Made by a program: the position numbers and the translations under genes. 64,000 nucleotides of DNA. It comes from an uncultured Gemmatimonadaceae bacterium (GTDB lineage Bacteria > Gemmatimonadota > Gemmatimonadetes > Gemmatimonadales > Gemmatimonadaceae). The stretch is from assembly GCA_963781585.1 (NCBI GenBank), contig CAWAGQ010000015.1, forward strand, positions 1-64,000, given 5' to 3'. Below the pieces are notes generated by a model. The model had not been told where the DNA came from, searched no databases, and saw nothing but the letters and a program-made list of their open reading frames with translations. This document shows positions 3-63,162 of the stretch, one piece after another; positions within the stretch are counted from its first letter, which is position 1; each line of letters opens with the position of its first letter.

Positions 3-284
3 ACGTACGATCTCATGGCGACCCCGGACGGCACCGGGTGGACCGTGAACTTTGCCAATCGCCCACCTGTGCCCGCCCGCATCGTCAGCGTGGGCGGCGA
101 CAGTATCGTCGTTGAATCCGGCCCCTATGAAAGCGTGCTGCAGAAGGGTGTCCAGGTCTCGACACACACAGTCTTCCACCTGCAGAGCGGCATGCTGAAA
201 GGCATGACCACCGCGCATTACGCCGGCGTCAAGACAGCCGATTCGGTGCGCATGCTGTCGCAGGAAGGAACGAAGAAGCCCTAA
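3..284 (+). CDS. Hypothetical protein, 5'-truncated by the window edge
   Basis: Frame is open from position 3 to TAA at 282-284; beta-strand-rich composition; followed by a hairpin. Confidence 0.7.
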   Translation, partial: TYDLMATPDGTGWTVNFANRPPVPARIVSVGGDSIVVESGPYESVLQKGVQVSTHTVFHLQSGMLKGMTTAHYAGVKTADSVRMLSQEGTKKP

Positions 285-299
285 CGAGACAGTACGAGA

Positions 300-328
300 G
301 ACGGGGAGCAAGTGAACGCTCCCCGTCA
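300..328. terminator. Stem-loop between convergent genes
   Basis: GACGGGGAGC-N8-GCTCCCCGTC perfect 10-bp stem about 15 nt after the stop. Confidence 0.6.
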
Positions 329-350
329 CCGTGCGGGCCGACCTTCGATC

Positions 351-393
351 TGCGGCCCTGCGGCCTCTGGCCTATGCCCTCTGGCCTGTGGCC
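351..393. repeat. Heptamer tandem array, TSTGGCC type
   Basis: tgcggcc ctgcggcc tctggcc tatgccc tctggcc tgtggcc. Confidence 0.75.
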
Positions 394-396: not shown

Positions 397-3141
397 TCAG
401 GGTTGGACCACCGCCTTCGTATTCGCGCCCCCCTTCCCCGCGTTCTTCACGTACACATCGAGCCACGCCACCCACCGCGCCCACTGATCGAGCACCGTCT
501 CGCGCGTGAGCGGGCCGTGATCCTCGTACGGATACATGTAGAGTGACGCGGTTTTGCCGTTCGCCCGCAACGCCTGCATCATCCGGATCGAGCTGATCGG
601 ATCGGTGCCGACGTTCTGGTCTTCCAGCGAGTGGTACATCAGCACCGCACCCTGCAGCTTGTCGGCATAGAGCATCGGCGACATGTCGAGATACGTCTTC
701 TGCCCGCTCCAGAGATCGCGCCGCTCGGTCTGGAATCCGTCGGGCGTGAGCGTGCGGTTGTACATCCCGTCGCCTGCGATCCCCGCCTTGAAGAACGGTG
801 TGTGCACCAGCGCATTCATGGTGCTGAACGCGCCGTAACTGTGCCCGCCGATCCCCAGTCGTGTGCGATCGATGTAGCCGTCCTTGTCCAGCTCGTCGAT
901 CGCCGATGAGAGATCCATCACCAGGTCGGAGACGTAGTTGTCGTTCATCGCGCCTTGCTCGCCCACGATCGGCGGGTCGAAGTCCGCGACCGCGTACCCC
1001 TGGGTGACGAGGTACTCGATGGTCCGCGGCGCGCCGTTCGGGAAGCTGTTGAGATTGGTGGTGCGCAGCGTGCGGTCGTAGCCGTTCTGCTCCGTATACT
1101 CGCGCGGATAGAACCAGAACATGCCGGGAAGTCGCGTGCCGGCACGGTAGTCGGCCGGCAGCGTGAGGCGCACCAGAAACCGGAACCCGTCGGCACGGGT
1201 CACGGTGATCCGCTTGCGGACGGCGTTGGTGAACTCCGGCGCGTAGTCCTTGTTGGTGGTGAGCTTCGTCATCGTGCCCGCCTTCACATCGCGCAGGTAC
1301 GAATCGGAAACGTCCTTCGGCGTCTCACGGTTCACGATCACTTTGGAAAAGTCATCGTCGAGTGCCGCGCCCACCGACTCGTCGGCGTCCTTCGCGCCCT
1401 CGAAGAGCCGCGTCTTCTGCCCGGACTGGATGTCCACCTTGTCGACGAACTCCACCGGGGGCTGCTGCTCGTAGTCCTTGTAGTAGCGCGTCCCCTGAAG
1501 GAAGACGGCGCCGTCGGACGAGACCATCGCCACCTGGCCGCCGGCGCTGCCGCGCTTGGTGACCAGCGCGCCGGGGTTCCCGTAGAACGAGAGCGAGTCG
1601 TCCGCGCCCGCTCCACCGCGACCGCCACCACCCCCGCCGCCGAACCGTCCGCCGCGGCCCGCGGCAAACGCCGGCGTGTACGCCCGCTGCCGGACGATCA
1701 CATGCTTCGTGGCGGGGTCGTCGAGATTCACGGCGAAGATCTCACCCTGTCCGCCGGCGGTCGTTCCCACGAAGATCGTCTTCGCGTCGTCGGTGAACAT
1801 CACCTGCGACATCGGCCCGTCGTTCTGATAGAGCACCTTCGTGTCGTTAGGCGCGAACGGCGGCATCCACTGCACCAGGCGGTCGGGGCGCGTGGCACCC
1901 TGCGCCCCTCGCCCCCCTGCGGCCCCGGCCCCGCCCCCACGGGCACCACGCGCGCCACCGGCCGCCACATCGGTGGAATCACTCCCGCCGCGACGTCCTC
2001 CGGGCACCTGCTCCAAGTAGTAGAGGCCCGGCCCCTGCGGCATCCACGAGAGCCCGCGCTTCGATCCGGTGCCCCCACCGCCACGACCGCCGAACCCGCC
2101 GCCCCCCGTGGTGTCGCCGGCGAAGCGCAGCGACCGCTTCGACAACTCGGCCAGCGCCTTCCCGGTCGCGTCCCAGATCTCTTCGGTAGACGGGAATGCG
2201 TTGTACTGTACGATGTACGAGAACGGCTTGTGCATCGTGGTGACGCGGAAATACTGCCCGTCCGGCGAGGCATCGACATTCGAGATCATCGCCGGCACGC
2301 CGATCTTCCGCACCGCCTTCGTCTTCACATCGATCAGCGCGAGCTGGCCCGTCACGTAGTACTCCATCAGCTCGGCGTCGAAAGGATCGTCGAGCAGGCT
2401 CGCGTAGTTCCGCTCCGACGCCTTCACCCCGTCGGTCCACGTGCGCACCAGCGGGCCGGTGGCGATCGCCGGCCGCTTCGGCTCGGGCGTGCGGTTGTCC
2501 GGGAGGAGCACCGTGATGACGCTCTTGCCATCGGCGGTCCAGTCGATCGACGTCTCGAGCGTGGCAAGGAGCGGCGTCTTCGTCACCTGCACCGACTTGC
2601 CGGTGGCGACATCGGCCACGTAGATCTGCGATGCATCGTCGAAGTTGGCGATGTAGGCCAGTTGCTTCCCGTCAGGCGACCACGCCGGGCTGCTGACCGT
2701 CGCCCCCTTTGGGGTCTCGATCGACATCGACTTGCCGGTCAGCGCGTCTATCAGAGCCAGACCAGCGGAGCCGCGATCGGTGAGCGTGCGGGCGCGATTC
2801 GCCTTGAAGTCGACCTGCAGCCCGGCGAAGTAGTAGTGCGGTTTCCCGAAGGTCTGCACGCTGGGCAGTCCCTCGCTTTCCTGCTTGAGGAAGTGACGCC
2901 GGTCAGGGCTGGGCTGCGCGAGCGTCACGTTCTGGAAGCGCGGCGCGGTCACGAGCTTCTGGATCTCCGGCGGCGGCACCTGGTACGACTCCGCGTCGAG
3001 GACGGCGCGGTCGGCCGCGAGCCACGGCGGGACGTCGTTCGGGTTCTGTGGGGGCGCCTGCTGCGCGCGCAGCGAGCTTGCGGCGATGAGGACCGCCAGC
3101 AGCGATCGGAGCACCAAACGAGGGGGGAAGGTCGGACGCAT
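397..3141 (-). CDS. Secreted S9 prolyl-oligopeptidase-family serine peptidase (beta-propeller plus alpha/beta hydrolase)
   Basis: Signal peptide from MRPTFPPRL (ATG 3141); PD40-like PAWSPDG repeats; GGHSYGA nucleophile, EDQNV Asp, EDHG His. Confidence 0.9.
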   Translation of the reverse strand: MRPTFPPRLVLRSLLAVLIAASSLRAQQAPPQNPNDVPPWLAADRAVLDAESYQVPPPEIQKLVTAPRFQNVTLAQPSPDRRHFLKQESEGLPSVQTFGKPHYYFAGLQVDFKANRARTLTDRGSAGLALIDALTGKSMSIETPKGATVSSPAWSPDGKQLAYIANFDDASQIYVADVATGKSVQVTKTPLLATLETSIDWTADGKSVITVLLPDNRTPEPKRPAIATGPLVRTWTDGVKASERNYASLLDDPFDAELMEYYVTGQLALIDVKTKAVRKIGVPAMISNVDASPDGQYFRVTTMHKPFSYIVQYNAFPSTEEIWDATGKALAELSKRSLRFAGDTTGGGGFGGRGGGGTGSKRGLSWMPQGPGLYYLEQVPGGRRGGSDSTDVAAGGARGARGGGAGAAGGRGAQGATRPDRLVQWMPPFAPNDTKVLYQNDGPMSQVMFTDDAKTIFVGTTAGGQGEIFAVNLDDPATKHVIVRQRAYTPAFAAGRGGRFGGGGGGGRGGAGADDSLSFYGNPGALVTKRGSAGGQVAMVSSDGAVFLQGTRYYKDYEQQPPVEFVDKVDIQSGQKTRLFEGAKDADESVGAALDDDFSKVIVNRETPKDVSDSYLRDVKAGTMTKLTTNKDYAPEFTNAVRKRITVTRADGFRFLVRLTLPADYRAGTRLPGMFWFYPREYTEQNGYDRTLRTTNLNSFPNGAPRTIEYLVTQGYAVADFDPPIVGEQGAMNDNYVSDLVMDLSSAIDELDKDGYIDRTRLGIGGHSYGAFSTMNALVHTPFFKAGIAGDGMYNRTLTPDGFQTERRDLWSGQKTYLDMSPMLYADKLQGAVLMYHSLEDQNVGTDPISSIRMMQALRANGKTASLYMYPYEDHGPLTRETVLDQWARWVAWLDVYVKNAGKGGANTKAVVQP

Positions 3142-3268
3142 CGTTGGATCCTCTGGGGGTGGGGCCGAGCGGGGTGACCGGACGCGGGACTTGGCGGGGG
3201 CTGGTCCGGACGCGGTCGCCTGCCGCCCTAACATACGTCTGATTTGCAGCGCTCGCTGCGGCCGAAAC

Positions 3269-4267: not shown

Positions 4268-5152
4268 CTATGGCAGCGGATTCGTCAGATCCAGGACGAT
4301 CCTCCACTGCCCGTTCGCCTCGCGCCGCCAGATCCGAAGGTAGTAGCCGTGCTCGTCTCCGGGTTGGGCCCCGCTGGCCGCGGTGAGAGTGTAGCTCCCC
4401 CACGTGTACCCGAAATCCCCCGCGGCGCCTGCGCCGCCACCGAGTGGTGCCGACCCATAGAGGCGCTTGTCGTTCGCCAGCGCACCACGCACCGCGCCCT
4501 GCCCCACCACGGGCGGCGTACCGTCACGGTAGAGCCGAGCATCCGCCGCCAGTCGGTTCGTCAACAGCGTCACCAGCATGGCTGGCGTTGCGCCTAACGA
4601 CGCGTCTACGCGCACCAGCGCGTCACGCCGGGCCGCGCCATCGGCAGAGGCAGGAGAACGGCCGCTCCGCACCGTAAGGCTGTCGGAAGCGACCGCGTCG
4701 TGTGTGATACCGATGTCGAGTGCCACCTTCCACGCTCCGGCGCCACCGGCACCGCGCGACCACATGGTCACGTAATGCCCAAACACAGGCGTGGCATCGG
4801 CACTCTGCGGCCGCAGCTCGAATGGCCCGGTCGTAAAGCCCAGTTCACCACTCGCCGACACCTCGGCATAGCGCGGCTCCCAGTTCAGATGCGCGCTCGA
4901 AGCCGCGTGGGTCGCGAACCACTGTCGCCCCGTCACCGGGCCGGGCCGGAAGATCACCGCGCTGTCGCCGAGGTTGGCGAGAAAGGCATCCCGGATACCG
5001 TGGTCGACCGAGGCCTTCGCGAAGGCGCGTTCGGCCGCCACCAATGACTCAACCGCGGCGTTCGACGACGCAGTCTGCGCGGCCGGACTGCGCGGGTGCA
5101 GTACGGCAAGCGCGAATACACAGCCGAGCGAAATCGGACGAGATGTGGTCAT
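4268..5152 (-). CDS. Secreted tandem NTF2/SnoaL-like (DUF4440-type) protein
   Basis: Signal peptide from MTTSRP; two repeats ending GELGFTTG..GHYVTMW..WKVALD and GDFGYTWG..GYYLRIW..WRIVLD. Confidence 0.8.
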   Translation of the reverse strand: MTTSRPISLGCVFALAVLHPRSPAAQTASSNAAVESLVAAERAFAKASVDHGIRDAFLANLGDSAVIFRPGPVTGRQWFATHAASSAHLNWEPRYAEVSASGELGFTTGPFELRPQSADATPVFGHYVTMWSRGAGGAGAWKVALDIGITHDAVASDSLTVRSGRSPASADGAARRDALVRVDASLGATPAMLVTLLTNRLAADARLYRDGTPPVVGQGAVRGALANDKRLYGSAPLGGGAGAAGDFGYTWGSYTLTAASGAQPGDEHGYYLRIWRREANGQWRIVLDLTNPLP

Positions 5153-6632: not shown

Positions 6633-6651
6633 GTGGCGCGTGATAAGCCCT

Positions 6652-6692
6652 CGCCCGGGGCGGAACCGCCGATTCTGGTTCCGCCCCGGGCG
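6652..6692 (+). terminator. 16-bp perfect stem-loop after the lactonase gene
   Basis: CGCCCGGGGCGGAACC-N9-GGTTCCGCCCCGGGCG; no U-tract. Confidence 0.55.
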
Positions 6693-6800: not shown

Positions 6801-8612
6801 ATGGCACCTCGAATCACACTCCAGCGCGCGTTGTTAGGCACGGTTGTCGCCGCCATTCTCGTTGGCGTCGTGCCGGCCGGCTTCGCGCTCGACCGCCGCC
6901 TGGCCGGCGCGTTGATCGCCAAGGAGCGCTCCGATCTCGAGATGGCGCCGCACGTCCTGGCCGATCGGATGGCCGGACGCGCCGACGTGCTCAAGATGCA
7001 CGCCATGGAATTCGCGCGCTCGCCGGGCCTGGCCGAGGCCCTGTCGCGCGGCGACCGTCCGGGCGTGGAGCAGCTCGCGCAGCGGGCAGCTCCCGGACTG
7101 GACGGGAGCGAACCGGTGATCGTCGCCGCCGACGGCCGCGCGGTGGTGGGCCCGCCGCCCGACAGCGCCTGGGTGGACGCCACCCGACGCGGCACCACCA
7201 CGGTCTCGGTCGGTGTCGACCGCGGCGCGGTGTTCACCTTTGCCATCGCCCCCGTGGAGATGGGAGGCGCCTGGGCAGGCGCCGCCGGCCTCGCCTATCC
7301 CCTCGACTCTCGCGACGCGGACGCCCTCGCCCGGCTCACCCGCGCCGACGTCACCATTCTGGTGGATCCGCAAGCGACGGTCGCGGTGACCACCCTCGAC
7401 TCCGCCCTGGCGCAGGGGATCCGCCGCGTCTACTCGGCGCCGCGCGACACCGGCCAGGCGGTGGAATACCAGATCGGCCGCCGCACACTGCTGGCGGTCG
7501 CGGCGCCGCTGGGCGATGCCGCCCACGTGATCTTCTCGCGCGACCGCGACGCCGAGCTGGCGGTGATCCCGCAGTTGCATCGCGTCGCGTTGATCAGCGC
7601 GCTGCTGGCCCTGGCGGTGGCCCTCACGTTAGGCGCGGTGCTGGCCGCCCGCGTCAGCCGGCCCGCCCGCGAGCTCTCGGCGGCCGCCACCGCCATCGCC
7701 CAGGGTTCGTTCGACGCGCCCCTGCCCCACGGCTCGCGGATCGACGAGGTGGCGCGCGTCGCCGGGCGGTTCGAGGAGATGCGCGAGACGTTGCGACGCC
7801 AGATGACCGACCTGCGCCAGGCCAACGACGCGCTCGCCGATCGCAATGCGCGACTCGTGTCGCTGCAGGCCGATCTCATGCAGCGCGACCGGCTGGCCGC
7901 CACTGGGCGCCTGGTGGCCCAGCTGGCGCACGAGATCCGCAACCCGGTAGCCAACCTGCGGAATCTGCTCGAGCTGGTGCGGCGGCGGGTCGAGGGCGAC
8001 CCACAGGCGATCGAATATGCCGACCTGGCGATCGACGAGCTGCTGCGCATGCACGAGCTGGCGGAACAGATGCTGGATCTGAACCGGCCGCGCGATCCGG
8101 CGGCGCAGCGGTGCGACCCCGTGGCCGTGGCGCGCGAAGTCGCGCGGCTCGCCTCGGCCGGCGCGCTCGGCCGCGACCCGCGGCTCGTGGTGCGCGGGCC
8201 GGACCACGCACAGGCGGCGATCGCCCCCGATGCGCTCAAGCAGGTACTGGTGAATCTGGTCCAGAATGCGCGTGAGGCCGTGGCGCATGCCGGCAGCCGC
8301 ACCGCGCAGATCAGCATCGCCATCACCCGGCAGGACGCCGGCGTCACGATTGCGGTCGAGGACAACGGGCCGGGTGTGCCTGACGAGTTGCGCGAGCGGA
8401 TCTTCGACCCGTTCTTCACCACCAAGGGCGCGGTGCACGGCGTGGGGCTGGGACTGTTCGTGGCCGAAGGCCTGGTGCGGAGCGCCGGCGGCCGCCTGAC
8501 GCTCGCGGACGCGCCCGGCGGCGGCGCGCGGTTCGTCGTCGAGCTGCCGCTGGTGGCCCCCGTCCCTGTCCCCACCGCAACCCCGTCCACACCGGCGAGT
8601 GCCCCGCCATGA
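6801..8612 (+). CDS. HAMP-domain sensor histidine kinase (NtrB-like)
   Basis: Two TM segments, HAMP, H-box LAHEIRNP, N-box NLVQNA, DNGPG, PFFTTK, GVGLGL. Confidence 0.95.
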   Translation: MAPRITLQRALLGTVVAAILVGVVPAGFALDRRLAGALIAKERSDLEMAPHVLADRMAGRADVLKMHAMEFARSPGLAEALSRGDRPGVEQLAQRAAPGLDGSEPVIVAADGRAVVGPPPDSAWVDATRRGTTTVSVGVDRGAVFTFAIAPVEMGGAWAGAAGLAYPLDSRDADALARLTRADVTILVDPQATVAVTTLDSALAQGIRRVYSAPRDTGQAVEYQIGRRTLLAVAAPLGDAAHVIFSRDRDAELAVIPQLHRVALISALLALAVALTLGAVLAARVSRPARELSAAATAIAQGSFDAPLPHGSRIDEVARVAGRFEEMRETLRRQMTDLRQANDALADRNARLVSLQADLMQRDRLAATGRLVAQLAHEIRNPVANLRNLLELVRRRVEGDPQAIEYADLAIDELLRMHELAEQMLDLNRPRDPAAQRCDPVAVAREVARLASAGALGRDPRLVVRGPDHAQAAIAPDALKQVLVNLVQNAREAVAHAGSRTAQISIAITRQDAGVTIAVEDNGPGVPDELRERIFDPFFTTKGAVHGVGLGLFVAEGLVRSAGGRLTLADAPGGGARFVVELPLVAPVPVPTATPSTPASAPP

Positions 8613-10066: not shown

Positions 10067-11308
10067 CTACTTTCCGCTCGCCAGCGCCCACACGATCGTG
10101 AGCGCCCACTGCGGCCCCAGCCAGCCGCGGTCGCCATCGCTGTACGACTCGGCCGTGGAGTGTGCGCCACGCCCATCTCCGCCGCCATCGATGGTGATGG
10201 CCGGGATGCCGAGCGACATGGGGATATTGGCGTCGGTGCTGGAGGTCCCGAGCTGCGCTTCGAAACCTAACGAGCGACCGGCCGCCTGGGCGGTGCGGAC
10301 GATGCGGCTGGTGTCGCTGGGCGCCGCCGCCGGGCGCACCCCCATCGACTGGACGTCGACGGTGATCTTCACCGGCGACTCGGGCCAGCGGGCGTTCTCC
10401 TCGGCCAGCGCATCGTTGACCGCCTGGCGGAACTTCGCGTCCAGCTTCGCCAGCTCCTCGGGCGACTCCGACCGCAAATCCACCTCCATCGCCCCCAGCG
10501 GGGAAATGCTGTTGACCGAGGTGCCGCCCTCGATCATCCCCACGTTGAAGGTGGTCTTGGGCGATTTCGGCACCTGGAGGTCGGCGATCCTGGCGATCGC
10601 GCGGCCGAGCGCGTGGATCGGGCTCGGCATGCCGAACGCGCCGTAGCTGTGGCCGCCGGGCCCCTGGAACGACACCTTGTACCGGTTGCTGCCGACGGCG
10701 CGATAGGTAATCCCGAGTCCCGTGCCGTCGATGGCGATGAAATAGTCGATCCGGGCCGGCGGGTGCGCGAACAGATAGCGCATGCCGCGCAGATTCCCCG
10801 GCCCTTCTTCGCCCACGTTGGCGACGAACACGATGTTGCCGGCAGTCGTGACCTGCGCGTCGCGCATCGCACGGGCCACCGTGAGGAGCACCGCCAATCC
10901 CCGGCAGTCGTCGCCGATACCGGGGCCGCGGAAGACGTCGCCGTCCTTCGTGACGTGGACCTCCGTTCCCTCGGGGAAGACGGTGTCGAGGTGGGCCGAG
11001 AACAGGACGGTCGGGCCGGCGCCGGAGCCGGGGCGCTCGGCGATCACGTTGCCTACCGAGTCGATCCGCACGGCGCGCAGGCCTAACGACTCGAAGCGCC
11101 GCTTCATTTCGGCGGCGCGCTGTTGCTCGTGGAACGGCGGGGCCGCGATCTCGCAGATCGACACCTGCTGGTTGAGTGTCCACGCGTTGCCGGTACGCAC
11201 GCCGTCGAGAGCCGCCTTCACGGTGGGCGGGAGAGCCGGCAGCGGCTGCTGGGCGCCGAGAATCGAGGCGGCCATGGCGAGAAGGGTCAGGCTCGAACGC
11301 GAGATCAT
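10067..11308 (-). CDS. Secreted M20/M25/M40 metallohydrolase
   Basis: Signal peptide from MISRSS; SAHLDTV, GIGDD, VGEEG, GGHS and AHS motifs. Confidence 0.9.
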   Translation of the reverse strand: MISRSSLTLLAMAASILGAQQPLPALPPTVKAALDGVRTGNAWTLNQQVSICEIAAPPFHEQQRAAEMKRRFESLGLRAVRIDSVGNVIAERPGSGAGPTVLFSAHLDTVFPEGTEVHVTKDGDVFRGPGIGDDCRGLAVLLTVARAMRDAQVTTAGNIVFVANVGEEGPGNLRGMRYLFAHPPARIDYFIAIDGTGLGITYRAVGSNRYKVSFQGPGGHSYGAFGMPSPIHALGRAIARIADLQVPKSPKTTFNVGMIEGGTSVNSISPLGAMEVDLRSESPEELAKLDAKFRQAVNDALAEENARWPESPVKITVDVQSMGVRPAAAPSDTSRIVRTAQAAGRSLGFEAQLGTSSTDANIPMSLGIPAITIDGGGDGRGAHSTAESYSDGDRGWLGPQWALTIVWALASGK

Positions 11309-16498: not shown

Positions 16499-16523
16499 AC
16501 AGTCCGCAATTACACCTCCATCC

Positions 16524-17681
16524 ATGGCCCGCAGCGTTCTACCCACGCACAGGGGAGCCCCCAGCGCACCCCAGTTCGTCGCCGACCTCGAGACGCCTGC
16601 GGCCCTGGTCGACCTCGACCGCCTGGCCGCCAATCTGGACCGGATGGCATCGTACTGCGCGATCCACAGCCTTGCCCTGCGCCCGCACGTCAAGACCCAC
16701 AAATCGCCGCGCATCGCCGCCGAGCAGCTGCGCATGGGTGCGGTGGGTCTTACCTGCGCGACGCCGCGGGAGCTGGAGGTCATGAGCGCGACCTGCGACG
16801 ACCTCCTCCTCGCCTATCCCCTCATCGGCCCCGCCAGGTTGCGGCGGGTGCTCGCCCTGCCGCCTAACGTGCGGCTCACCGTGGCGGTCGATTCGGTCGA
16901 AGCCATCGACCAGCTTGCCGAAGCGGCTGACGCCGCCCGACGCGAGCTGGGTGTGTACGTGGAAGTCGACCTCGGCATGCATCGGGTGGGGGTGCCCACG
17001 CGGGATCTGGCGCTCCAACTGGCGCGTCGCGTGCGGGCGCGACCGCCGCTCTTCTATCGCGGGATCACCTTCTACCCGGGCCACATCCGCGACTCCGTGG
17101 ACGCGCAGAGCGCGAAGCTCGAGCAGCTGGAACGCGATCTCGGAGCACTGCGGGACGCGTTGGGGTCCGCCGGCCTGGCGCCCGACGTGGTGAGCGGCGG
17201 ATCGACACCGGCCGCCTGGCGCATGCACGAGGTGGAGGGGATCACCGAAGTGCGACCGGGCACGTACGTCTACAACGACCGCGGCACGTCCGACATCGGA
17301 GCCTGCTCCTGGGACGACTGCGCATTCACCGTGCTGGCCACGGTGGTGAGTACCGCGGTGCCCGATCAGGCGGTGGTGGATGCGGGGAGCAAGGCCCTGG
17401 GACGGGAACCGATGCGCGGCGTCGAGGGCGAGGGCTTTGGCGCCCTGCTCGACGATCCGGCCGTGATCGTGAGCCGGATGTCGGAGGAGCACGGCATCCT
17501 GGATCTGCGCGGGACGCACTGGCGACCGCGTGTGGGCGAGGTGGTGCGGATCGTGCCGAACCACGTCTGCGTCGTCGTGCACCTCAACGACGTCATTTAT
17601 GGAATGCGCGATGACGTAGTCGAGACCAGCTGGCCCGTCAGCGCCCGAGGGAGGGGAGGAGCGCCGGCAGGAGCTCGCTAG
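16524..17681 (+). CDS. Fold-type III PLP enzyme (D-threonine aldolase / DSD1-like, alanine-racemase fold)
   Basis: LETPAALVD, LRPHVKTHK, SGGSTP, EVRPGTYVYND, SEEHG, PNHVC. Confidence 0.9.
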   Translation: MARSVLPTHRGAPSAPQFVADLETPAALVDLDRLAANLDRMASYCAIHSLALRPHVKTHKSPRIAAEQLRMGAVGLTCATPRELEVMSATCDDLLLAYPLIGPARLRRVLALPPNVRLTVAVDSVEAIDQLAEAADAARRELGVYVEVDLGMHRVGVPTRDLALQLARRVRARPPLFYRGITFYPGHIRDSVDAQSAKLEQLERDLGALRDALGSAGLAPDVVSGGSTPAAWRMHEVEGITEVRPGTYVYNDRGTSDIGACSWDDCAFTVLATVVSTAVPDQAVVDAGSKALGREPMRGVEGEGFGALLDDPAVIVSRMSEEHGILDLRGTHWRPRVGEVVRIVPNHVCVVVHLNDVIYGMRDDVVETSWPVSARGRGGAPAGAR

Positions 17682-18234: not shown

Positions 18235-18460
18235 CACGCCGGTTCCTCTTGGTGACCTGATATCAGCTGCACGCGACACCTCATGGCGGGACGCACAGCG
18301 TGCCGCCGACGACCACCTGCCTGCTCCACCCCCGCGGTCGGCGACGACACGTTGTGTTCCTCTCCTTGTTCCGGCTTGACACCGCGCAGCGCCCGATCAC
18401 GAGCCCGGTGATGTCGGGATGGATGCCCCCAGCGGGTCCTGGCGCGCCAGGGGCGGCTGC

Positions 18461-25116: not shown

Positions 25117-25449
25117 CGGTGAGGTGTCGCGCGGTGTCGCGCGGAACGGGCCGGTCACGTCGACCCTCACGCGATAGCCTTCCAGCTCCTCGGGAAGATG
25201 CAGGCGCCGAGCGGCGGCTGAGTCCACCAGCATGATACGGATGCATGGGACGCCGTCGCAAAGGGCGATGGCTGTCCCGGTCACGCCCGGCAGCGCCATC
25301 AGCGAGTCGGTATGCGCGGCGAGCACGTCGGCGATCGGTCTGGCGGGCATGTGGCGTCCGGGATTGGCGTGGGGCGCGCGGGTGCAGGACGCAGCCAGGG
25401 CGAACGCGAACGCCGGTAGTGCGCGCCTAACGAGGACTGGGAACGTCAC
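25114..25449 (-). CDS. Small lipoprotein homologous to the N-terminal domain of the upstream protease
   Basis: GTG start 25449; lipobox LAASC; GVTGTA..G.P..LP..LEG..V..VTG aligns with the protease N-terminal domain. Confidence 0.75.
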   Translation of the reverse strand: MTFPVLVRRALPAFAFALAASCTRAPHANPGRHMPARPIADVLAAHTDSLMALPGVTGTAIALCDGVPCIRIMLVDSAAARRLHLPEELEGYRVRVDVTGPFRATPRDTSP

Positions 25450-49656: not shown

Positions 49657-49858
49657 GCGCCGATACTGGCTACGGATGCGTCCGCGGTCGGACCACCTCC
49701 GCGATCAGTGCCTGCTGCCAACAGTCCACCGCGGTGGCGACTGTGCATTGGCCCACGGAGAGATGGCGTTAGGCAGCGGTCGGGGTCGCCAGGGATGTGG
49801 AACGCCGCGAGTCGGTCCTGGTACGACCACCCACTCCATACCGAGGCGGCATACCCCG

Positions 49859-53264: not shown

Positions 53265-55084
53265 GCGATGCCCGCCCGTTCCTTCGCCTTCCCGATGATC
53301 GCCGCCATCACATCGCGGTACTTCGTGAACGTGTCGTCCACCACCTGCAGCGTGGGGATTGCGTTAGGCGAGAGGTTGAGCGTCTCGGCGTTGAACCGGC
53401 CGAACCCGGATTCGTGCACCCCGCTGCTGCCGCGCCCGGGCGCCGGGCTGCTGAGGTGCTGGAAGAAGCGCGCGTACTTCCGCCAGATGGCGCCCCCACC
53501 GGCGTGATACATCGGGATGAACCCGTACAGCGCGTCGTACGGCATCTCCCCGACGCACACCACCTTGGGGTACCTGGTCCGCAGGTTCGTCACCAGCCGC
53601 TTCGTCCCCTCGTGCATGTCGCCGGTGGTGCTGTTCACGTGCCCGCCCACGATGTCGAGGAAGTACGCGTCCACGCCGTAGCGGTCGATAGTGTCCGCGA
53701 TGCGCCCTTCCATCCAGGTGCGCCACGAATCGGCGCCGAGGTTCATGTAGGTGAGCCAACCGTCCTGATGTCGGTCGTTGTTCCAGTCCACCCAGTTCAG
53801 GTTGTAGATGTCACCGTCGATCTTGTGCGTCGCGCCGCTCTCGATGCGCGGCCAGCTGGCGAGTTTCCGGTTGGCCGCGTTGGTCCCGAACATCGGCATC
53901 ATCCGGAAACCGAGCTTCTGCCCTTCGCTGATCAATCGGCGGAATCCCGCTTCGCCGCCCATCCGGTCCGACGCCCGGTATTCCGGATAGTCCCAGTAGT
54001 AGCGCCCGTCCCAGGCCGAGATGAACGCCAACACCCGATCGGCCGGAATCTGCGTCGCCATCCAGCGGAGGATCTCCAGCATCCGGGCATAGTCGTTGAA
54101 CATGAAGCCCGTGTAGTGCATCCCGTGCAGCGTGGTGACCATCGCAATCTGCCGCATCCAGGCCGGCACGTCGTCGCGCTCGTCCCACTCGCGCAGCCCG
54201 TGCGCCCGCTCCAGGTGCTCGATGTGCGGCGCCAGCGCCGCCTCCATCGACGGCGCGCGGCCAAGGCGCCAGCGTGGAACCTCGACTCGCATGTCGTTGC
54301 GCCATCCGTCGTGCTCGTACACAGCCTCGACGCGATAGGCGCTCTCTCCCGGCTGAAAGTGGAATCGCTTCGGTCGCACCCGGTCGTCGAGCGACGAAAT
54401 GAAGAACACGTCCTGCGCGCCCGGCGCCTGGACCATCGCCAGCGGGGTCGCCATGCCGGCCGCGGAACCCGGGCCGTGCAGATCGCCGGCGCCGAACGTG
54501 TAGCCGCCGAGCATTTCCCCATCGCGCGGGTCGAAGAAGTTGCCACCGCCGAGCGAGAGCTGTCCACGCGGCACGTCGCGGATGATCGTCGTGACGGTCT
54601 TGACCGGGCGCCGCATCTCCACCACCGCATCCCACTCCACCGTGGACCCGTTTCGCCGAAAGGTGGCGGTGAGTTTCCCCGGTGCCTTCTCCTGTCCGCC
54701 CGCCCACACGAAACCGTCGCACGTCAGGCGCATTTCGTCGCCTGTCACCGCGGCGGTCATCGCATCACGGTCGAGGCTGTAGGTATTCTCATCGGTGAAA
54801 ACGAGGAAGCCGAAGCGCAGGTCGGCAAATGCCACCGACGGTTCGGGATTGTCGAAGCTGAACTTCATGTACGCGCGACCTCGCGGCGGCACGAACACGT
54901 CGCTCGTGGACGTGAGCGGGAAGATGTCGCCCGGCGCATGGCGCAACGCGGCGCCAGGTGCGACCAGTGCGGGTCCCGCCCGCTCGGCGTCGTGCAGCAC
55001 TCCCTCGGCGTCCGGGATCAGGCTTCCGGCGCCAACGGCCCCCACGACCTTGATCCAGTCGCGGCGCGAGATCGACTCATCCAT
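53261..55084 (-). CDS. Tat-exported uncharacterised protein, probable TIM-barrel glycoside hydrolase
   Basis: SRRDWIK Tat motif; WDGRYYWDYP, MGGEAGFRRLI, YGVDAYFLD, VGE; ATGA overlap with araD. Confidence 0.65.
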   Translation of the reverse strand: MDESISRRDWIKVVGAVGAGSLIPDAEGVLHDAERAGPALVAPGAALRHAPGDIFPLTSTSDVFVPPRGRAYMKFSFDNPEPSVAFADLRFGFLVFTDENTYSLDRDAMTAAVTGDEMRLTCDGFVWAGGQEKAPGKLTATFRRNGSTVEWDAVVEMRRPVKTVTTIIRDVPRGQLSLGGGNFFDPRDGEMLGGYTFGAGDLHGPGSAAGMATPLAMVQAPGAQDVFFISSLDDRVRPKRFHFQPGESAYRVEAVYEHDGWRNDMRVEVPRWRLGRAPSMEAALAPHIEHLERAHGLREWDERDDVPAWMRQIAMVTTLHGMHYTGFMFNDYARMLEILRWMATQIPADRVLAFISAWDGRYYWDYPEYRASDRMGGEAGFRRLISEGQKLGFRMMPMFGTNAANRKLASWPRIESGATHKIDGDIYNLNWVDWNNDRHQDGWLTYMNLGADSWRTWMEGRIADTIDRYGVDAYFLDIVGGHVNSTTGDMHEGTKRLVTNLRTRYPKVVCVGEMPYDALYGFIPMYHAGGGAIWRKYARFFQHLSSPAPGRGSSGVHESGFGRFNAETLNLSPNAIPTLQVVDDTFTKYRDVMAAIIGKAKERAGIA

Positions 55085-55223: not shown

Positions 55224-56411
55224 ATGCGCAGGCACCTCACCCCGGCGGCCCTTCTATTATGTATCCTCGGAACCGCCGGATGCGCCGGCGGTTCCCGCGA
55301 TCAGGGCTCATCCTCGACTGGCCGCAGCGCGGATCGCACGATGACGAACCATCCGTCGGTCGCCTCCGCGCCGTTCGGCGTCCTGCCGAGCGGCGATTCC
55401 GTTTCGATCTATACGATCACCAACCGGCACGGCCTGGAGGTGCGCGCCATGCCGTTCGGCGCCGAGATCGTCTCCATCCGCACTCCCGACCGGAACGGCG
55501 CATTCGCCGACATTACCCTCGGCTTCGATTCGCTGGCGGGCTATGAGGAGAACGCGCCGTACTTCGGGGCGCTGGTAGGGCGCTACGCCAATCGCATCGC
55601 ACGGGGACGCTTCACGCTCGATGGCACGACCTACCGGCTGGCCACCAACAACGGGGTGAATGCGTTGCACGGCGGTGTGCGCGGATTCAACAAGGTGCTC
55701 TGGCAGGCGACTCCATTCGAGCACGACAGCTCCGCCGGCGTGGAGCTGCGCTACACCAGTCCGGACGGTGAGGAGGGCTATCCGGGCACGCTGCAGGTGC
55801 TGGTGACTTACACGCTCGGCGACGATGATCGGCTCGAGGTGGACTATCACGCGACGACCGACAAGGCGACGCCGGTGAATCTCTCGCAGCACAGCTATTT
55901 CAATCTGGCGGGAGAAGGGTCGGGCGACGTACTCGGCCAGGTGCTGACGATAGACGCGGACCGGTTCATTCCGGTGGATTCGACGTTGATCCCGATCGGG
56001 GAGCTCAAGGCGGTCCGGGGTACCGCATTCGATTTTCGCACGCCGACGCCGATCGGGGCCCGGATCGAGGCGGCCGACATGCAGCTTGCGGATGGTCATG
56101 GTTATGACCACACCTTCGTGCTCAACCGGAGCGACACGGGGCTGGTGCATGCGGCCCACGTCCTCGACCCGACCTCGGGGCGCACGCTCGACGTCTGGAC
56201 CACCGAGCCGGGAGTGCAGTTCTACACGGGTAACTTTCTCGATGGGACGGTGATCGGGAAGAACGGACACGCCTACGTGCGGCGGGGCGGCTTCTGTCTC
56301 GAGACCCAGCACTTCCCGGATTCGCCTAACGAGCCGAGGTTCCCGTCGACGATTCTGCGTCCAGGCCAGGAATTCCGGTCGAAGACGGTATTCGGATTTG
56401 GCAGGCAGTAG
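55224..56411 (+). CDS. galM: Aldose 1-epimerase (mutarotase) with lipoprotein signal
   Basis: Lipobox TAGC; GRYANRI, LHGG, EEGYPG, NLSQHSYFNL, QFYTGN, CLETQHFPD. Confidence 0.95.
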   Translation: MRRHLTPAALLLCILGTAGCAGGSRDQGSSSTGRSADRTMTNHPSVASAPFGVLPSGDSVSIYTITNRHGLEVRAMPFGAEIVSIRTPDRNGAFADITLGFDSLAGYEENAPYFGALVGRYANRIARGRFTLDGTTYRLATNNGVNALHGGVRGFNKVLWQATPFEHDSSAGVELRYTSPDGEEGYPGTLQVLVTYTLGDDDRLEVDYHATTDKATPVNLSQHSYFNLAGEGSGDVLGQVLTIDADRFIPVDSTLIPIGELKAVRGTAFDFRTPTPIGARIEAADMQLADGHGYDHTFVLNRSDTGLVHAAHVLDPTSGRTLDVWTTEPGVQFYTGNFLDGTVIGKNGHAYVRRGGFCLETQHFPDSPNEPRFPSTILRPGQEFRSKTVFGFGRQ

Positions 56412-59255: not shown

Positions 59256-59286
59256 GCCGCGTCCACCGCGCACCACCGGTACGGCC

Positions 59287-60948
59287 ATGAACCGTCGCCG
59301 GTTTCTGGAGCAGTCTGCCGCGTTAGGTGGCCTCGCGGTCCTCGGCGCGGCGGCGCCAGCCTCCATCCCCCTCGTGCGATCCGCCCGCCGGTCCCGGCGC
59401 GCCATGCTCGCCGATTCGCACATCGAGATCCTCCTCGACGAGCCCATCGGCACCATCGCCCCGGAGCTCTACGGACACTTCACCGAACATCTGGGCGGCG
59501 TGATCTACGACGGCCTCTGGGTAGGAGAGGATTCACGGGTCCCGAACGTCGGCGGAATCCGGAAGGCCCTCGTGGACGCCCTGCGTGTGATCCATCCCTC
59601 GGTAATCCGCTGGCCCGGCGGGTGCTTCGCCGACTCCTACGACTGGCGCGACGGGGTCGGACCCCGCGACAATCGTCCCACGCGCGTCAACTTCTGGTCC
59701 GACGATCCCCACCTCAAGACGCTCGGCAACGTCCCGCAGAAGTACGAGCCCAACCGGTTCGGCACCAACGAATTCGCGCGCTTCTGCAGCCAGGTGAGCG
59801 CGCAGCCCTACTTCGGCGCAAACGTGCGCACCCAGCCGGCCGGCGTGTTTCACGAGTGGGTGGAGTATTGCAATGCGCCCGCCGGGAGCACCACGCTCGC
59901 CAGGCTGCGTGAGGCGGGCGGCGAGCGCGATCCGCTCGGCGTACGCTACTGGGGGATCGGCAACGAGTCGTGGGGGTGCGGCGGCAACTTCACGCCCGAG
60001 GAGTACGCGGAGAACTTCCGGCGCTATGCCACCTGGTCGGTCCCGGAGTTCGGCGTGCAGCTGGCCTTCGTGGGATCAGGGCCGAACGGGGGCGATTACG
60101 ACTGGACCCGCCGAGCCTTTCGCGCGCTCGCCGAGCGCAACGACCTGGGGCGACTGTGGGGATGGGCGCTGCACCACTACTGCAGCGCCCCCGGCGGTGA
60201 GGCCGTCGCCTACAGCGACACCGACTGGTACGAGCTCCTGGCGAGCGCCAACCGGATCGAGTCGCTGATCACGGGTCACTGGCAGGTGATGCGCGAGTCG
60301 GACCGGCAGCATCGCGTGAAGCTGGTGGTGGACGAGTGGGGGGCGTGGCACAAGATGACCACCAATGTCGACCCCACGCATCTCTTCGGGCAGCAGTCCA
60401 CGGTGCGGGACGCGCTGGTGGCGGGGCTCACCCTCGACATCTTCAACCGCCATGCCGACAAGGTGGCGATGGCGAACATCGCCCAGCTCGTCAACTGCAT
60501 CCAGTCGCTGTTCCTGGCGCACGAGGACAAGTTCGTGGTCACGCCGACGTATCACGTGTTCGGGATGTACACGCCGCACCACGGAGGACAGTCGCTGCGG
60601 ACCCTCGTGTCGGCGCCGGTCATCTCATGGACCGACACCCAGCGTCGGCCGCAACAGTTCTGGGGACTCGCCGGCTCAGCGTCGCTTCGCGAGAACGTCG
60701 TGACGCTCACGGTCACCAACCCGCACCTGAGCGAAGCGCGCGACGTGGAGATCGTGGTGCGCGGAGGGACCGCTCGTTCGGTGCAGGCCACGGTTCTGAC
60801 CAATGCCGATGTGCGCGCTCACAACACGTTCGACCAGCCGCGCGCGGTGCAGCCGCGACAGGCGGACGTTCAGGCGGCGGCGGGCGCGATGGTGTACCAC
60901 GCTCCCGCGGCATCGGTCAGCCGGTTGGATATCGCGCTCGGCGCCTGA
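59287..60948 (+). CDS. abfA: GH51 alpha-L-arabinofuranosidase, Tat-exported
   Basis: NRRRFL Tat motif; GHFTEHLG, RWPGGCFAD, WGIGNE, VDEWG, MANIAQLVN. Confidence 0.93.
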   Translation: MNRRRFLEQSAALGGLAVLGAAAPASIPLVRSARRSRRAMLADSHIEILLDEPIGTIAPELYGHFTEHLGGVIYDGLWVGEDSRVPNVGGIRKALVDALRVIHPSVIRWPGGCFADSYDWRDGVGPRDNRPTRVNFWSDDPHLKTLGNVPQKYEPNRFGTNEFARFCSQVSAQPYFGANVRTQPAGVFHEWVEYCNAPAGSTTLARLREAGGERDPLGVRYWGIGNESWGCGGNFTPEEYAENFRRYATWSVPEFGVQLAFVGSGPNGGDYDWTRRAFRALAERNDLGRLWGWALHHYCSAPGGEAVAYSDTDWYELLASANRIESLITGHWQVMRESDRQHRVKLVVDEWGAWHKMTTNVDPTHLFGQQSTVRDALVAGLTLDIFNRHADKVAMANIAQLVNCIQSLFLAHEDKFVVTPTYHVFGMYTPHHGGQSLRTLVSAPVISWTDTQRRPQQFWGLAGSASLRENVVTLTVTNPHLSEARDVEIVVRGGTARSVQATVLTNADVRAHNTFDQPRAVQPRQADVQAAAGAMVYHAPAASVSRLDIALGA

Positions 60949-62954
60949 ATCCGTCGCGCCGCCTGACGTGACGCTGTGTCCGGCGGCATGTAGAGTGGCT
61001 GGACGACGGGCCAGCCGAGAATGGGGGTCAACACCGTGGGGTCGATCTTCCGTTCGCCCACCGGGAAACTGAAGCCATGAGGAAGTGGGTGTAACGCGGG
61101 CTTGGCAACCCTGGCCGCACGTGCCAGCCGGTCCGGTCCGGCGGATTCACGTTCGGACGTGCCCCGCTGACGCGTTCGAACAGCTGCGCCGTCCCTTAGC
61201 ACCGGGGGCTTCGCGGGGATCACCCATTCGATTCGTTTCACCAGGCTGTCGTACACGGTGAGAAGCGTGTCTGCGATCGAGGTCGCTCCGTGGCGCACCT
61301 GCAATCGAATCGGTCGTTCGCGCACGACCCCGCATACTCGGAACCGCCCTTCCGGATCCACCGAAACCATCTGACCCGCGCCGAGGACCCCCAGGTTCCC
61401 GGTTGCGGTTTCGGTCGCCCAATCGATCCGGACGTTGCCCTTGTAGTCGGCCTGCCACGTCGCCCACACCTCGGCATCGGCAACAGGACGGTGGTCGGAG
61501 GTGGTTAGTCGCCCAACGACAATCGATGAACGCTCAGGCAGCTTTTGGCCCTTGCATGAGTGCCGCAGACTCTCGATCAGAGGAGAGAGGCGGATGGTCA
61601 CGTCTGTCTGTGGCGCGCGACGCAGGTCGATGCTCCGCGAAGCTGTCCGCGCTGGCGCATATTCGACGAGAGCGGTGTCCACGGCGTCGATCACATAGTG
61701 GCCGGGGACCACAGGCCACAGGGAGAATGCGCCGTCGGCGTCGGAGGTGACCGTGTCGGCGGTACCCAGGAGAAAGATCATCACGTTGTCCATGGGCCGG
61801 CCGGTGCCCTTCTCCGACACGTGTCCGGTCACACGACTGGTCGGGGCTGCCCAGTGTGCGCTGTCGGGCCACGCGGCGCTCATCACTTCTCCTCCTTTCT
61901 CCCGGATTTCGACCACCTGGAGGTCAAGCCGCTCGGTGCGTCGCGTGTCTTCTCGGACGTCAACCCGGGTCGCGGATCGAATCGCGGGTGGGAGCGGGCT
62001 CATGACCGGAATGCGCATCACCCACTGCTCGATGAACACCACCCCGTTAGGCATGGAGTGGAACCTCAGCGCGCCACCGGCTCCGGCGCGTTGCGCCGCT
62101 CTCTCCAGACCGGTGAACTGGAACTCGAGGGTGCGAAGGGCCGGCACCTTGGCGTCGAGCCACAACACGCCCGCGACATCGACAAGCGAATCGCGCCCGG
62201 GGATCGGGTCGAAGGCGAGGCCCACCTGATCCGGATGCGCGCTGTTGGCGCGCTGGAATCCGAGACAGTGCGTCGACGCAAACGTCGGGTCCAGCAGGAC
62301 GTCGGCGTCAGGAGCGCTATACGATCGCTCGGTCGAGTCCTCCTGCATATACCCTTTGGCCACGAACTCCGATGGCGGCGCCGACGCAAGAAATGGTCTG
62401 GTGGTACGACCAGACTGGAATCGCACCACCTGACTGCGAACAAGATCGTCGCCGGGGTGCATCGTGCGCTCGTAGACCAGCATGGTGGCGATCGCCGGCT
62501 TCGACTCGCGCGCCACCACGGCGGCCAGTAACCCGGCGCGTGCCTGATCCCATAGCTCCACAGCCGCATCCCGCGACGCGGACCCGGGACAGAGTTTCTC
62601 TCCAGATACCTTCACCGCGCTCAGAAGCGGCGGCAGTCGTTCCATGCTGATTTCGAATCCCCGGCCATCCGGTGTAGTCGGGATGTCGAGCTCATGCGGA
62701 CGAAAGCCAATGCGAACAACCCGCAGCCGTCTCGCGGAGGCGGTCACGACGATGGTGAATCGCCCGGTCGCGTCCGCAATCGTCCGCGCGGTGACGTCTC
62801 CCGCTGCGTCGAGGGACGAAACAACGGCGCCCGGAACGGGCAGCTGGCTCACGCTGTCCCGCACAACACCGGGCAGTTGCTGCGCACCAGCGGAGCGGAT
62901 CGCTCCTGCGAGAGCGAACCCGAGGAAGGCACGGCAATGACCTGAACCCCACAT
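60870..62954 (-). CDS. Secreted multi-repeat carboxypeptidase-regulatory-like domain protein
   Basis: GVVRDSVSQLPVPGA..ADATGRF..RIGF; later repeats GHVSE..SDADGAF and EGRFRVCGV; last ~110 codons look poorly coding. Confidence 0.75.
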   Translation of the reverse strand: MWGSGHCRAFLGFALAGAIRSAGAQQLPGVVRDSVSQLPVPGAVVSSLDAAGDVTARTIADATGRFTIVVTASARRLRVVRIGFRPHELDIPTTPDGRGFEISMERLPPLLSAVKVSGEKLCPGSASRDAAVELWDQARAGLLAAVVARESKPAIATMLVYERTMHPGDDLVRSQVVRFQSGRTTRPFLASAPPSEFVAKGYMQEDSTERSYSAPDADVLLDPTFASTHCLGFQRANSAHPDQVGLAFDPIPGRDSLVDVAGVLWLDAKVPALRTLEFQFTGLERAAQRAGAGGALRFHSMPNGVVFIEQWVMRIPVMSPLPPAIRSATRVDVREDTRRTERLDLQVVEIREKGGEVMSAAWPDSAHWAAPTSRVTGHVSEKGTGRPMDNVMIFLLGTADTVTSDADGAFSLWPVVPGHYVIDAVDTALVEYAPARTASRSIDLRRAPQTDVTIRLSPLIESLRHSCKGQKLPERSSIVVGRLTTSDHRPVADAEVWATWQADYKGNVRIDWATETATGNLGVLGAGQMVSVDPEGRFRVCGVVRERPIRLQVRHGATSIADTLLTVYDSLVKRIEWVIPAKPPVLRDGAAVRTRQRGTSERESAGPDRLARAARVAKPALHPLPHGFSFPVGERKIDPTVLTPILGWPVVQPLYMPPDTASRQAARRIQAPSAISNRLTDAAGAWYTIAPAAA

Positions 62955-63162
62955 CGGCAGCTATCCTTTGGGTTCGGCTGCATGAATACGCCCCCCGCCC
63001 CGCCCTGTCCATGTTGTCCGGAGAAAATTCTGTGACCGCCAGGATGCAACGCGCACTCATCACCCGCCCCCGTCGCTCCACGGCGCAACGTTCAGTGGGC
63101 CGGGCCGACGTGCGGACCGAACGCCAGCGCCTAACGTGACTCCGAGTCCCGCATTGCGGACC

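Follow-up and report, generated by a model that had tools for sequence, protein, structure and literature searches.

A 64,000-nucleotide stretch of DNA from an uncultured Gemmatimonadaceae bacterium (positions 1 to 64,000 of contig CAWAGQ010000015.1, C15:1-64000 in our numbering and hereafter the window) is studded with the nonpalindromic octamer GCCTAACG, which reads CGTTAGGC on the other strand. The same word dominates the whole source genome (G000; 5,715,271 bases in 17 contigs, 67% G+C), where it occurs 1442 times, 718 times on the + strand and 724 times on the − strand. It is quite possibly an uptake-sequence-like tag that was spread by molecular drive, which is the explanation that we tentatively prefer.

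An earlier note on the window, made from its letters alone, had counted 19 exact copies by hand, and a pattern search returned the same 19 at the same positions, of which the + strand reads GCCTAACG at 11 and CGTTAGGC at 8. In 100 dinucleotide-preserving shuffles of the window, the mean was 0.84 copies (standard deviation, 0.98; maximum, 4), and none gave 19. Enrichment is not confined to the window, as all 17 of the 17 contigs carry the word at 0.19 to 0.34 copies per kb, or about 1 per 4 kb. The 1442 copies compare with 217 expected from a zero-order model and 50.6 from an order-3 Markov model, an excess of about 28-fold over the latter, and place the word at rank 1 among all 8-mers of G000 by a wide margin (z = 194, order-3 Markov). 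The 8-mers ranking just below it are its own overlapping neighbors, and the signal is absorbed by Markov models of order 5 and 6, which include the sub-words of the octamer.

It is at the DNA level that the word is maintained, as proposed by the earlier note, which named a codon-preserving null as the way to find out. Genes were called crudely from G+C content at third codon positions (3634 genes, about 75% of the genome). Shuffling synonymous codons within these genes left a mean of 44.6 copies (20 runs; maximum, 38 + 31) versus 1046 observed, about 23-fold, even though this null retains the TTA codons contributed by the word; shuffling codon order left 31.7. The enrichment persists under the codon-preserving null, and an artifact of codon usage was rejected on this basis.

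Conservation above background in a congener points the same way. G001 belongs to the same genus and is syntenic with the window at ∼87% nucleotide identity. In 303 kb of G000/G001 alignment, 63 sites were common to both genomes, 19 were found only in G000, and 11 were found only in G001, which corresponds to a site retention of 77 to 85% versus 41% for arbitrary 8-column windows. In the sugar ABC operon of the window (27656-31576), compared among G000, G001, G005, G009, and G002, sites are mostly lineage-specific, with one common to G005 and G009. They originated by synonymous changes (ACG CTG GGA to ACG TTA GGC) and by mild replacements (Q to N, M to T, and S to G). The copies at 28760..28767 and 30064..30071 are both kept in G001; at the first, the G005, G009, and G002 orthologues have S/E-L-S/T in other codons, and at the second, G009 and G002 have P-P-Q-E.

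One-off variants of the word are also over-represented relative to the order-3 model (ACCTAACG, 5.4-fold; GCATAACG, 4.7-fold; GCCTGACG, 3.5-fold; GCCTAACA, 3.5-fold) and are denser in G000 than in word-poor relatives. The variant GCCTGACG (A to G at position 5) is present at 207 to 266 copies per Mb in G000, G001, and also G314, a member of the Verrucomicrobiota discussed below, which is 3 to 4 times denser than the 65 to 75 per Mb of word-poor relatives. It sits in frames that require rare codons (CCT, TCA, and AGG). Alignment of all 1442 exact sites gave at most 0.3 bit at every flanking position, with a pyrimidine at −1 in 79% and a base other than G at +9 in 88%. In the absence of conserved flanks, the copies are therefore solitary words and not parts of a repeat element, and a dispersed element such as a repetitive extragenic palindrome (REP) or a miniature inverted-repeat transposable element (MITE) was rejected.

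Within the window, 7 copies are read as NCG-TTA-GGC, 8 as CCT-AAC, and 2 as a stop codon (CGT-TAG at 18459 and GCC-TAA at 49767), and 3 lie between called genes. The earlier note had named the TTA-GGC, CCT-AAC, and CGT-TAG readings and the intergenic copies correctly, but the window holds 0 copies of a further reading that it had named, GTT-AGG. The called genes of G000 contain about 692 copies read as NCG-TTA-GGC, 253 as G-CCT-AAC-G, 63 as GC-CTA-ACG, and 38 as C-GTT-AGG-C; a further 93 copies run across a gene end, and 309 fall outside the called genes. Of the 1252 TTA codons in G000, 692 (55%) belong to the word, which also supplies 44 of 260 TAA and 58 of 1133 TAG stop codons. Among compatible tripeptides, 16% of [SPTA]LG carry it, as do 1 to 3% of [SRGC]LT and VR[LPHQR]. 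As to imposed amino acids, there are 1034 PN[VADEG] tripeptides versus 763 expected, but the reversed control [VADEG]NP is likewise in excess (932 versus 763), and we rely on the comparison of orthologues above.

The claim that the word lacks strand bias holds for the two DNA strands and fails relative to genes, since CGTTAGGC lies on the coding strand 730 times versus 316 times for GCCTAACG (70:30). When genes were assigned to the leading or lagging strand by 100-kb GC skew, the coding-strand ratio was 245:92 (73%) in leading-strand genes and 149:74 (67%) in lagging-strand genes, with the same word density in both. This equal share indicates that the word has no replication polarity, unlike Chi, which is read by RecBCD or AddAB, and unlike the FtsK-orienting polar sequences (KOPS) and SpoIIIE recognition sequences (SRS) read by FtsK and SpoIIIE. 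These words resemble the octamer in being asymmetric, over-represented 8-mers at a density comparable to the approximately 1 per 4 kb of G000, and they differ in that the G000 word is far more enriched and makes use of rare codons. Of 31 relatives, one has RecC (PF04257), which was not found in G000 (AddAB and AdnAB were not searched for). A polar word of the Chi or KOPS type was therefore rejected, in agreement with the earlier note.

Copies in G000 avoid each other irrespective of orientation. Pairs closer than 300 bp number 17 versus 54.6 expected in the same orientation and 13 versus 54.4 expected in opposite orientations, and 1.4% of adjacent gaps are shorter than 200 bp versus 5.0% expected. 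Exactly one copy is present in 775 genes versus 710 expected, and two or more copies are present in 129 versus 154. Several of the longest word-free stretches (21.5 to 38 kb, on contigs C5 and C8) have 62 to 64% G+C and few typical genes, and they look like acquired DNA. Long word-free stretches of this composition are found at C8:283862-357436 and C5:276646-324259. The same two contigs carry near-duplicate pilin genes (C5:203336 with C8:211029 and C5:320227 with C8:325044). Possible explanations are acquired islands, a large duplication, and a mixture of strains (the stated contamination of the assembly is 7.19%).

Word richness is patchy among the Gemmatimonadota. Among the 30 relatives counted, G001 (915 copies), G005 (605), G009 (6360 in 5.1 Mb), G014 (460), G015 (516), and G030 (345) are rich, G013 (194) and G016 (173) are moderate, and the remainder contain 6 to 65 copies, fewer than their reversed-word controls (roughly 50 to 430). 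An even sample of 301 Gemmatimonadota genomes revealed richness only in some genera of the same family, the Gemmatimonadaceae (for example, G233 with 3896 copies, G290 with 4141, G297 with 4469, and G158 with 1100), and in one genus of a sister family (G166 with 726 and G204 with 1061). About 270 other genomes contain 2 to 110 copies, mostly fewer than the reversed-word control. Over both sets of counts, roughly 25 Gemmatimonadota genomes are word-rich and 300 are word-poor. The contrast can fall within one genus, in which G233 and G290 are rich and G286 is poor (66 copies). Word-poor genomes do not appear to use another word in its place, as 200 kb each of G003 and G018, which resemble G000 in G+C content, yielded no other hyper-abundant 8-mer (top z of about 8) and 0 to 5 copies of the word per Mb versus 252 per Mb in G000. 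The trait is thus present or absent and does not form a series of dialects, and dialects in word-poor relatives were rejected on the basis of these two samples.

The identical word is hyper-abundant in a second phylum. The genome_contigs collection was scanned for three copies spaced 250 to 280 bp, and results came from 80 of at least 132 stretches. Among the matches listed, copies dispersed over both strands occur only in the Gemmatimonadaceae and in metagenome-assembled genomes (MAGs) of the Chthoniobacterales/Verrucomicrobiae; a small number of loci in other taxa, with the word on one strand, were assigned to no class. Two Chthoniobacterales MAGs contain 4562 copies (3.2 Mb) and 5186 copies (4.3 Mb), and a Verrucomicrobiae MAG contains 1155, with the strands balanced and reversed-word controls of about 260 to 300. 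The scan and the counts were an independent test of an earlier description of TCGTTAGGC/GCCTAACGA as an uptake-like word in soil Verrucomicrobia. An even sample of 200 other Verrucomicrobiota genomes contained no rich genome (highest count, 104). In both phyla, the word marks narrow clades. In G314 (Verrucomicrobiota, 326 kb sampled), it is a strict 9-mer, as A follows in 95% of 475 sites, and it occurs about once per 690 bp. The Verrucomicrobiota word has the same 8 letters as that of G000, in which the ninth letter is merely not G, the density is about 1 per 4 kb, and close pairs are avoided.

Elsewhere the word is found in local clusters. Among the matches listed, attC-like arrays with the same 8-mer come from Acidobacteriota, Capsulimonadaceae, Arenimonas, and Aquabacterium, and dense tandem arrays holding the word at a spacing of about 70 to 140 bp come from Haliangium and cyanobacteria. 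In the latter, CGTTAGGC recurs on one strand every ∼70 to 140 bp (L093-L095 and L141-L143 in a Haliangium MAG; L086, L107, and L138 in cyanobacteria), and these resemble tandem repeats, of the CRISPR type or another, in which the word is present by coincidence. A Latescibacterota genome (125 copies) and a Dehalococcoidia genome (42 copies) have many of their copies in regularly spaced local clusters. A scan of viral_contigs with the three-copy pattern returned only 2 stretches, one of which is an attC-like array. A contig filed as viral, L223 (IMGVR_UViG_3300037193_002291; 4325 bases, 61% G+C), has five same-strand copies in 1.8 kb without attC-like flanks and may come from a phage that infects a word-rich host or be bacterial sequence filed wrongly.

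A word whose copies arise by point changes at the cost of the rarest codons and some amino acids, are conserved, are orientation-free, are spaced in G000, are missing from foreign-looking DNA, and are present or absent clade by clade suggests a product of drive rather than of benefit at each site. In the explanation that we prefer, a sequence-specific factor (the reader) would recognize GCCTAACG on duplex DNA in either orientation, and molecular drive, not benefit at each site, would have written the word into resident genes. The uptake apparatus (type IV pilus/secretin, ComEA, and ComEC) would take up word-bearing fragments preferentially, and homologous replacement would then install the word-bearing alleles, converting near-matches to the word despite rare codons and mild amino acid changes. 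One copy per fragment would suffice, and a new copy beside an existing one would gain little. We infer that uptake bias is the drive and that the reader is a specificity factor gained and lost by lineages, one that has probably moved between phyla.

Uptake bias with homologous replacement is the drive proposed for the uptake signal sequences (USS) of Pasteurellaceae and the DNA uptake sequences (DUS) of Neisseriaceae, and known uptake sequences are lineage-specific. The G000 word resembles these in being short and asymmetric and in occurring hundreds to thousands of times, on either strand, in several frames and for the most part within genes. Further shared features are imposed codons and some imposed amino acids, clade specificity, retention in close relatives, enriched one-off variants, and, in G000, a spacing more even than chance. 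Among the functions that the earlier note had listed as candidates, an uptake-type sequence fits best. The word differs from USS and DUS in occurring in a new phylum without a ComP-type pilin, in the lack of inverted pairs serving as terminators, in the absence of any word rather than a dialect from most genera of the family, and in the recurrence of the same word in a second phylum. To our knowledge, uptake-type signature words have been established for two proteobacterial families only. A literature search with most subscription journals outside its coverage found no report of an uptake sequence in the Gemmatimonadota, and a transferable reader of uptake sequences is not described in the literature so covered. 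Searches for uptake sequences together with Verrucomicrobia returned titles on gene-strand bias, methods for detecting horizontal gene transfer, and horizontal gene transfer into land plants, with none on the topic among them as judged from the titles, and a search for newly described uptake sequences found none; among the papers listed for the word itself, its occurrences apparently come from primers and similar sequences, as judged from titles and the openings of abstracts.

Several observations weigh against uptake-driven spread. ComEC, an HHH_3/ComEA-like protein, and a PilQ-like secretin are each present in 30 of 31 relatives and in G000, with every match to the secretin falling below the curated family cutoff. 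All three are equally present in word-poor relatives and so do not explain which genomes have the word. The ComP-type receptor (ComP_DUS, PF16732) passed the cutoff in 1 of 31 genomes, the word-poor G011, and was rejected as the reader. The identity of the G000 ComEA is 42 to 50% to family members, 35% to G314, and 49% over about 60 residues in G315, another word-rich member of the Chthoniobacterales; this similarity follows phylogeny, and ComEA was rejected as a transferred reader. Close pairs are not depleted in G314 (gaps shorter than 50 bp, 8.5% versus 8.0% expected), and the argument from spacing is thus not valid everywhere. The very uneven use of reading frames is only loosely explained, a single word hyper-abundant in two phyla is not predicted by simple vertical evolution of a receptor, and our search found no cultured word-rich strain.

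Other searches for the reader were as follows. Weak pilin-type matches in the ComP search do not follow word richness, and pilin candidates number 12 to 14 in G000 and 8 to 15 in five other genomes. A comparison of G000 genes with those of G314, limited to 326 kb of its 3.2 Mb, brought out conserved housekeeping clusters alone (median identity, 40%; best, 76%). The word-poor G018 (2.5 Mb, 96% complete) is the sole relative without ComEC and ComEA-like HHH_3 matches.

The word could instead be an intracellular mark of self or a binding site that a nucleoid, condensin-loading, or repair/nuclease-control protein needs at regular intervals, giving Chi-like protection without polarity, with selection keeping a copy in every few hundred to few thousand bases. 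The orientation-independent avoidance of close pairs, the slight underdispersion per gene, conservation above background, and absence from atypical islands are all compatible with such a site, as is the density in G000, which the density of Chi in Escherichia coli resembles. Selection would nevertheless have to hold thousands of sites of tiny benefit against rare codons and amino acid changes, and densities among rich genomes span 30-fold (173 to 6360 copies). Close relatives manage without any such word, and both the lack of replication polarity and the distribution of RecC speak against a Chi-like role. We therefore regard an intracellular self tag as rather unlikely.

Biased gene conversion linked to repair or modification is an unlikely source of the word as well. 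Here near-matches would be converted by short-patch repair acting with a methyltransferase or nickase that has the specificity of the word, as may be envisaged for HIP1, the highly iterated palindrome of cyanobacteria, which is likewise an 8-mer of very high copy number within genes. Enrichment of variants that differ by a transition (ACCTAACG, GCCTGACG, and GCCTAACA) and their higher density than in poor relatives would fit this process, and a horizontally mobile enzyme would explain both the patchiness and the sharing between phyla. G000 also encodes a Vsr domain (C7:478239-478451, 95.9 bits), which lies inside a 790-amino-acid open frame, unusually long for a Vsr endonuclease. However, Vsr was found in 4 of 31 relatives, G000 and the word-poor G002, G007, and G028, and was not found in the rich G001, G005, G009, G014, and G015. 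Vsr-linked repair was rejected because Vsr does not follow word richness, and the HIP1-like or methylation-linked option of the earlier note gained no support (methyltransferases and methylation were not examined). Gene conversion of this type also predicts no avoidance of close pairs, yet these are depleted about 4-fold in G000, and it would be unusual for a methylation site of 8 bp to be both asymmetric and uninterrupted. Unlike HIP1, the G000 word is not a palindrome.

A link to integrons, which the earlier note overlooked along with the abundance in a second phylum, leaves its list of options incomplete. The word consists of C plus GTTAGGC, and GTTAGGC is an instance of the integron core GTTRRRY. 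In the available text of PMC3053210, an attC site is made up of an inverse core RYYYAAC, an imperfect palindrome, and then the core GTTRRRY; the core of attC and attI and its inverse are given there and in the available text of PMC12614218. By our own count, about 8 of the 32,896 strand-collapsed 8-mers contain GTTAGGC. The match may be chance, or it may be the sign of a reader that recognizes cassette ends.

In word-poor relatives, most copies are clustered on short stretches, on one strand and 400 to 2300 bp apart. On G021:C95, 24 repeats of ∼110 nucleotides within 20 kb start with G[CT]CTAAC and end with CGTTAGGC, and the bottom strand of the repeat is predicted to form a long hairpin with bulges (−39.7 kcal/mol, z = −6.5). 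Matches to intI adjoin some arrays (G021:C80 and G019:C26). In these relatives, true attC sites carry the word at their R′ end and are arranged in cassette arrays, which we located at G021:C95:1-24000 (L008 and L009), G021:C80:1-6000 (L010; beside a fragmentary intI at 6419-7300), G021:C43 (L011), G019:C3 (L012), and G029:C1 (L013).

The copies in G000 are of a different kind. An attC site has its core and inverse core paired across an imperfect palindrome of 57 to 141 bp, whereas in G000 only 10 convergent pairs of inverse core and core lie 35 to 140 nucleotides apart, so at most about 20 of the 1442 copies could be attC ends; attC sites were rejected as the source given these 10 pairs and the lack of conserved flanks. 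No conserved second (L-box-like) site is present next to the solitary copies in the 1442 aligned sites. G000 has an intact integron integrase (C7:185885-186829, − strand, 434 bits), and no obvious attC array lies beside it. Three identical copies of a 303-amino-acid tyrosine recombinase are also present in G000 (C7:172407-173237, C7:183006-183836, and C13:309021-309851), and this recombinase is found in G001 and beside intI in G014. IntI exceeded the cutoff in 18 of 31 relatives without relation to word richness. It is intact in the poor G002, G003, G004, G006, G007, and G011 and in the rich G000, G001, G014, G233, G297, and G315. The richest genome, G009, has only fragments of it, and G005, G013, G015, and G314 yielded no match. 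IntI was therefore rejected as the reader.

We give little credence to the possibility that the reader is an integron integrase, a relative of one, or a factor recognizing cassette ends, with the solitary copies serving as recombination or landing sites or the tag aiding integron cassette capture. Such a reader would account for the core match, for the word at the ends of attC-like hairpins in word-poor relatives, and for the same 8-mer in attC-like arrays of several further phyla; the mobility of integrons, which both phyla possess, could account for the sharing of the word between them. In contrast to attC and attI sites, however, the copies in G000 are solitary, in frame in housekeeping genes, and without an inverse core, palindrome, neighboring intI, or correlation with intI. 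The available text of a preprint (bioRxiv 10.1101/2022.09.11.507474) states that integrases require just GWT in genomic attG sites, and we see no way in which a recombinase would write in-frame point changes. A more far-reaching variant, with only a small chance of being correct, is that narrow clades in two soil phyla took up one horizontally moving reader of the attC R′ core C-GTTAGGC and use its site as a DNA acquisition tag.

The weakest explanation, a translation-level signal in which the word places rare TTA codons (bldA-like control) or encodes a Leu-Gly or Pro-Asn peptide, could draw on the share of TTA codons within the word and on the presence of one tRNA-Leu(UAA) gene only, but it is highly improbable and already largely refuted by the distribution over frames and strands, since roughly one copy in two is not a TTA codon (other strand or frames, stop codons, and intergenic copies) and third codon positions are fixed on both sides too.

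Individual exact copies in the window, given with the strand on which they were recorded, fall mostly within genes. Those read through TTA-GGC are found at 4592..4599(+) (TCG TTA GGC, S-L-G) in an open reading frame at 4268-5473(−), at 7627..7634(−) (ACG TTA GGC, T-L-G) in a histidine kinase gene at 6786-8612(+), at 11081..11088(+) (TCG TTA GGC, S-L-G) in an M20 peptidase gene at 10067-11602(−), at 28760..28767(+) (TCG TTA GGC, S-L-G) in an ABC ATPase gene at 27656-29230(−), at 37463..37470(+) (GCG TTA GGC, A-L-G) in a gene at 36410-38071(−), and at 40584..40591(+) (GCG TTA GGC, A-L-G) in a GH15 gene at 39201-41621(−). Those read through CCT-AAC are found at 1845..1852(−) (GCG CCT AAC GAC, A-P-N-D) in an S9 peptidase gene at 397-3234(−), at 16862..16869(+) (CCG CCT AAC GTG, P-P-N-V) in a gene at 16326-17681(+), at 27076..27083(−) (CTG CCT AAC GGG, L-P-N-G) in a gene at 25544-27577(−), at 30064..30071(−) (CCG CCT AAC GAA, P-P-N-E) in a binding-protein gene at 29288-30352(−), at 33781..33788(+) (CCG CCT AAC GAC, P-P-N-D) in a sugar kinase gene at 33152-34771(+), at 46838..46845(−) (GTG CCT AAC GCG, V-P-N-A) in an M28 peptidase gene at 46578-48989(−), at 53362..53369(−) (TCG CCT AAC GCA, S-P-N-A) in a gene at 53261-55240(−), and at 62045..62052(−) (ATG CCT AAC GGG, M-P-N-G) in an open reading frame at 60870-62954(−). 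The copy at 18459..18466(+) gives the TAG stop (CGT TAG GC) of an open reading frame at 18461-19234(−), and that at 49767..49774(−) gives the TAA stop (GCC TAA CG) of one at 49769-50734(−). Copies at 25425..25432(+), 56324..56331(+), and 63129..63136(+) are intergenic.

Six additional copies of the core, which the earlier note had placed at 280, 3227, 6833, 10266, 47940, and 59322, are indeed present, five as one-off variants and one as a two-off variant. The two-off copy is CCCTAACA at 3226..3233(+). The one-off copies are CCCTAACG at 279..286(+), TGTTAGGC (equivalent to GCCTAACA, enriched 3.5-fold genome-wide) at 6832..6839(−) and again at 47939..47946(−), ACCTAACG (183 copies genome-wide versus 34 expected) at 10265..10272(+), and CGTTAGGT (equivalent to ACCTAACG) at 59321..59328(−).

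A second group of over-represented 8-mers in G000 exists because of intergenic tandem arrays of 7-nucleotide units. In the window, such arrays (units of the GGCCACA, AGGCCAA, CAGAGGC, and GTCAGCG types) occupy 25044-25114, 58944-59018, 362-393, and 21450-21585. An 8-mer of these arrays, AGGCCAAA, is present in 331 copies versus 28 expected in G000 and in 62 copies in 363 kb of G001, and the array at 25044-25114 matches dozens of places in G001.

New here are the word in the Gemmatimonadota, its identity in both phyla, and its agreement with the core site of integrons. A word of the uptake-signature kind is now found in the Gemmatimonadota, where it accounts for about half of all TTA codons and so distorts codon usage, and in word-rich MAGs it marks resident versus foreign DNA. 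Programs that find integrons by matching core sites can be misled by it as well. The sharp presence and absence between genera and within one genus should make the gene for the reader findable by genome comparison, and the exact recurrence of the word in a narrow clade of another phylum speaks for a reader that is transferable. The core match gives rise to a concrete hypothesis in which transformation and cassette capture are connected in soil bacteria. If a single mobile reader of the attC core were at work, word-rich lineages would prefer their own DNA, each other's DNA, and the integron cassette arrays of many phyla, their genomes would have been filled with the word as a by-product, and natural transformation would be tied to integron cassette capture.

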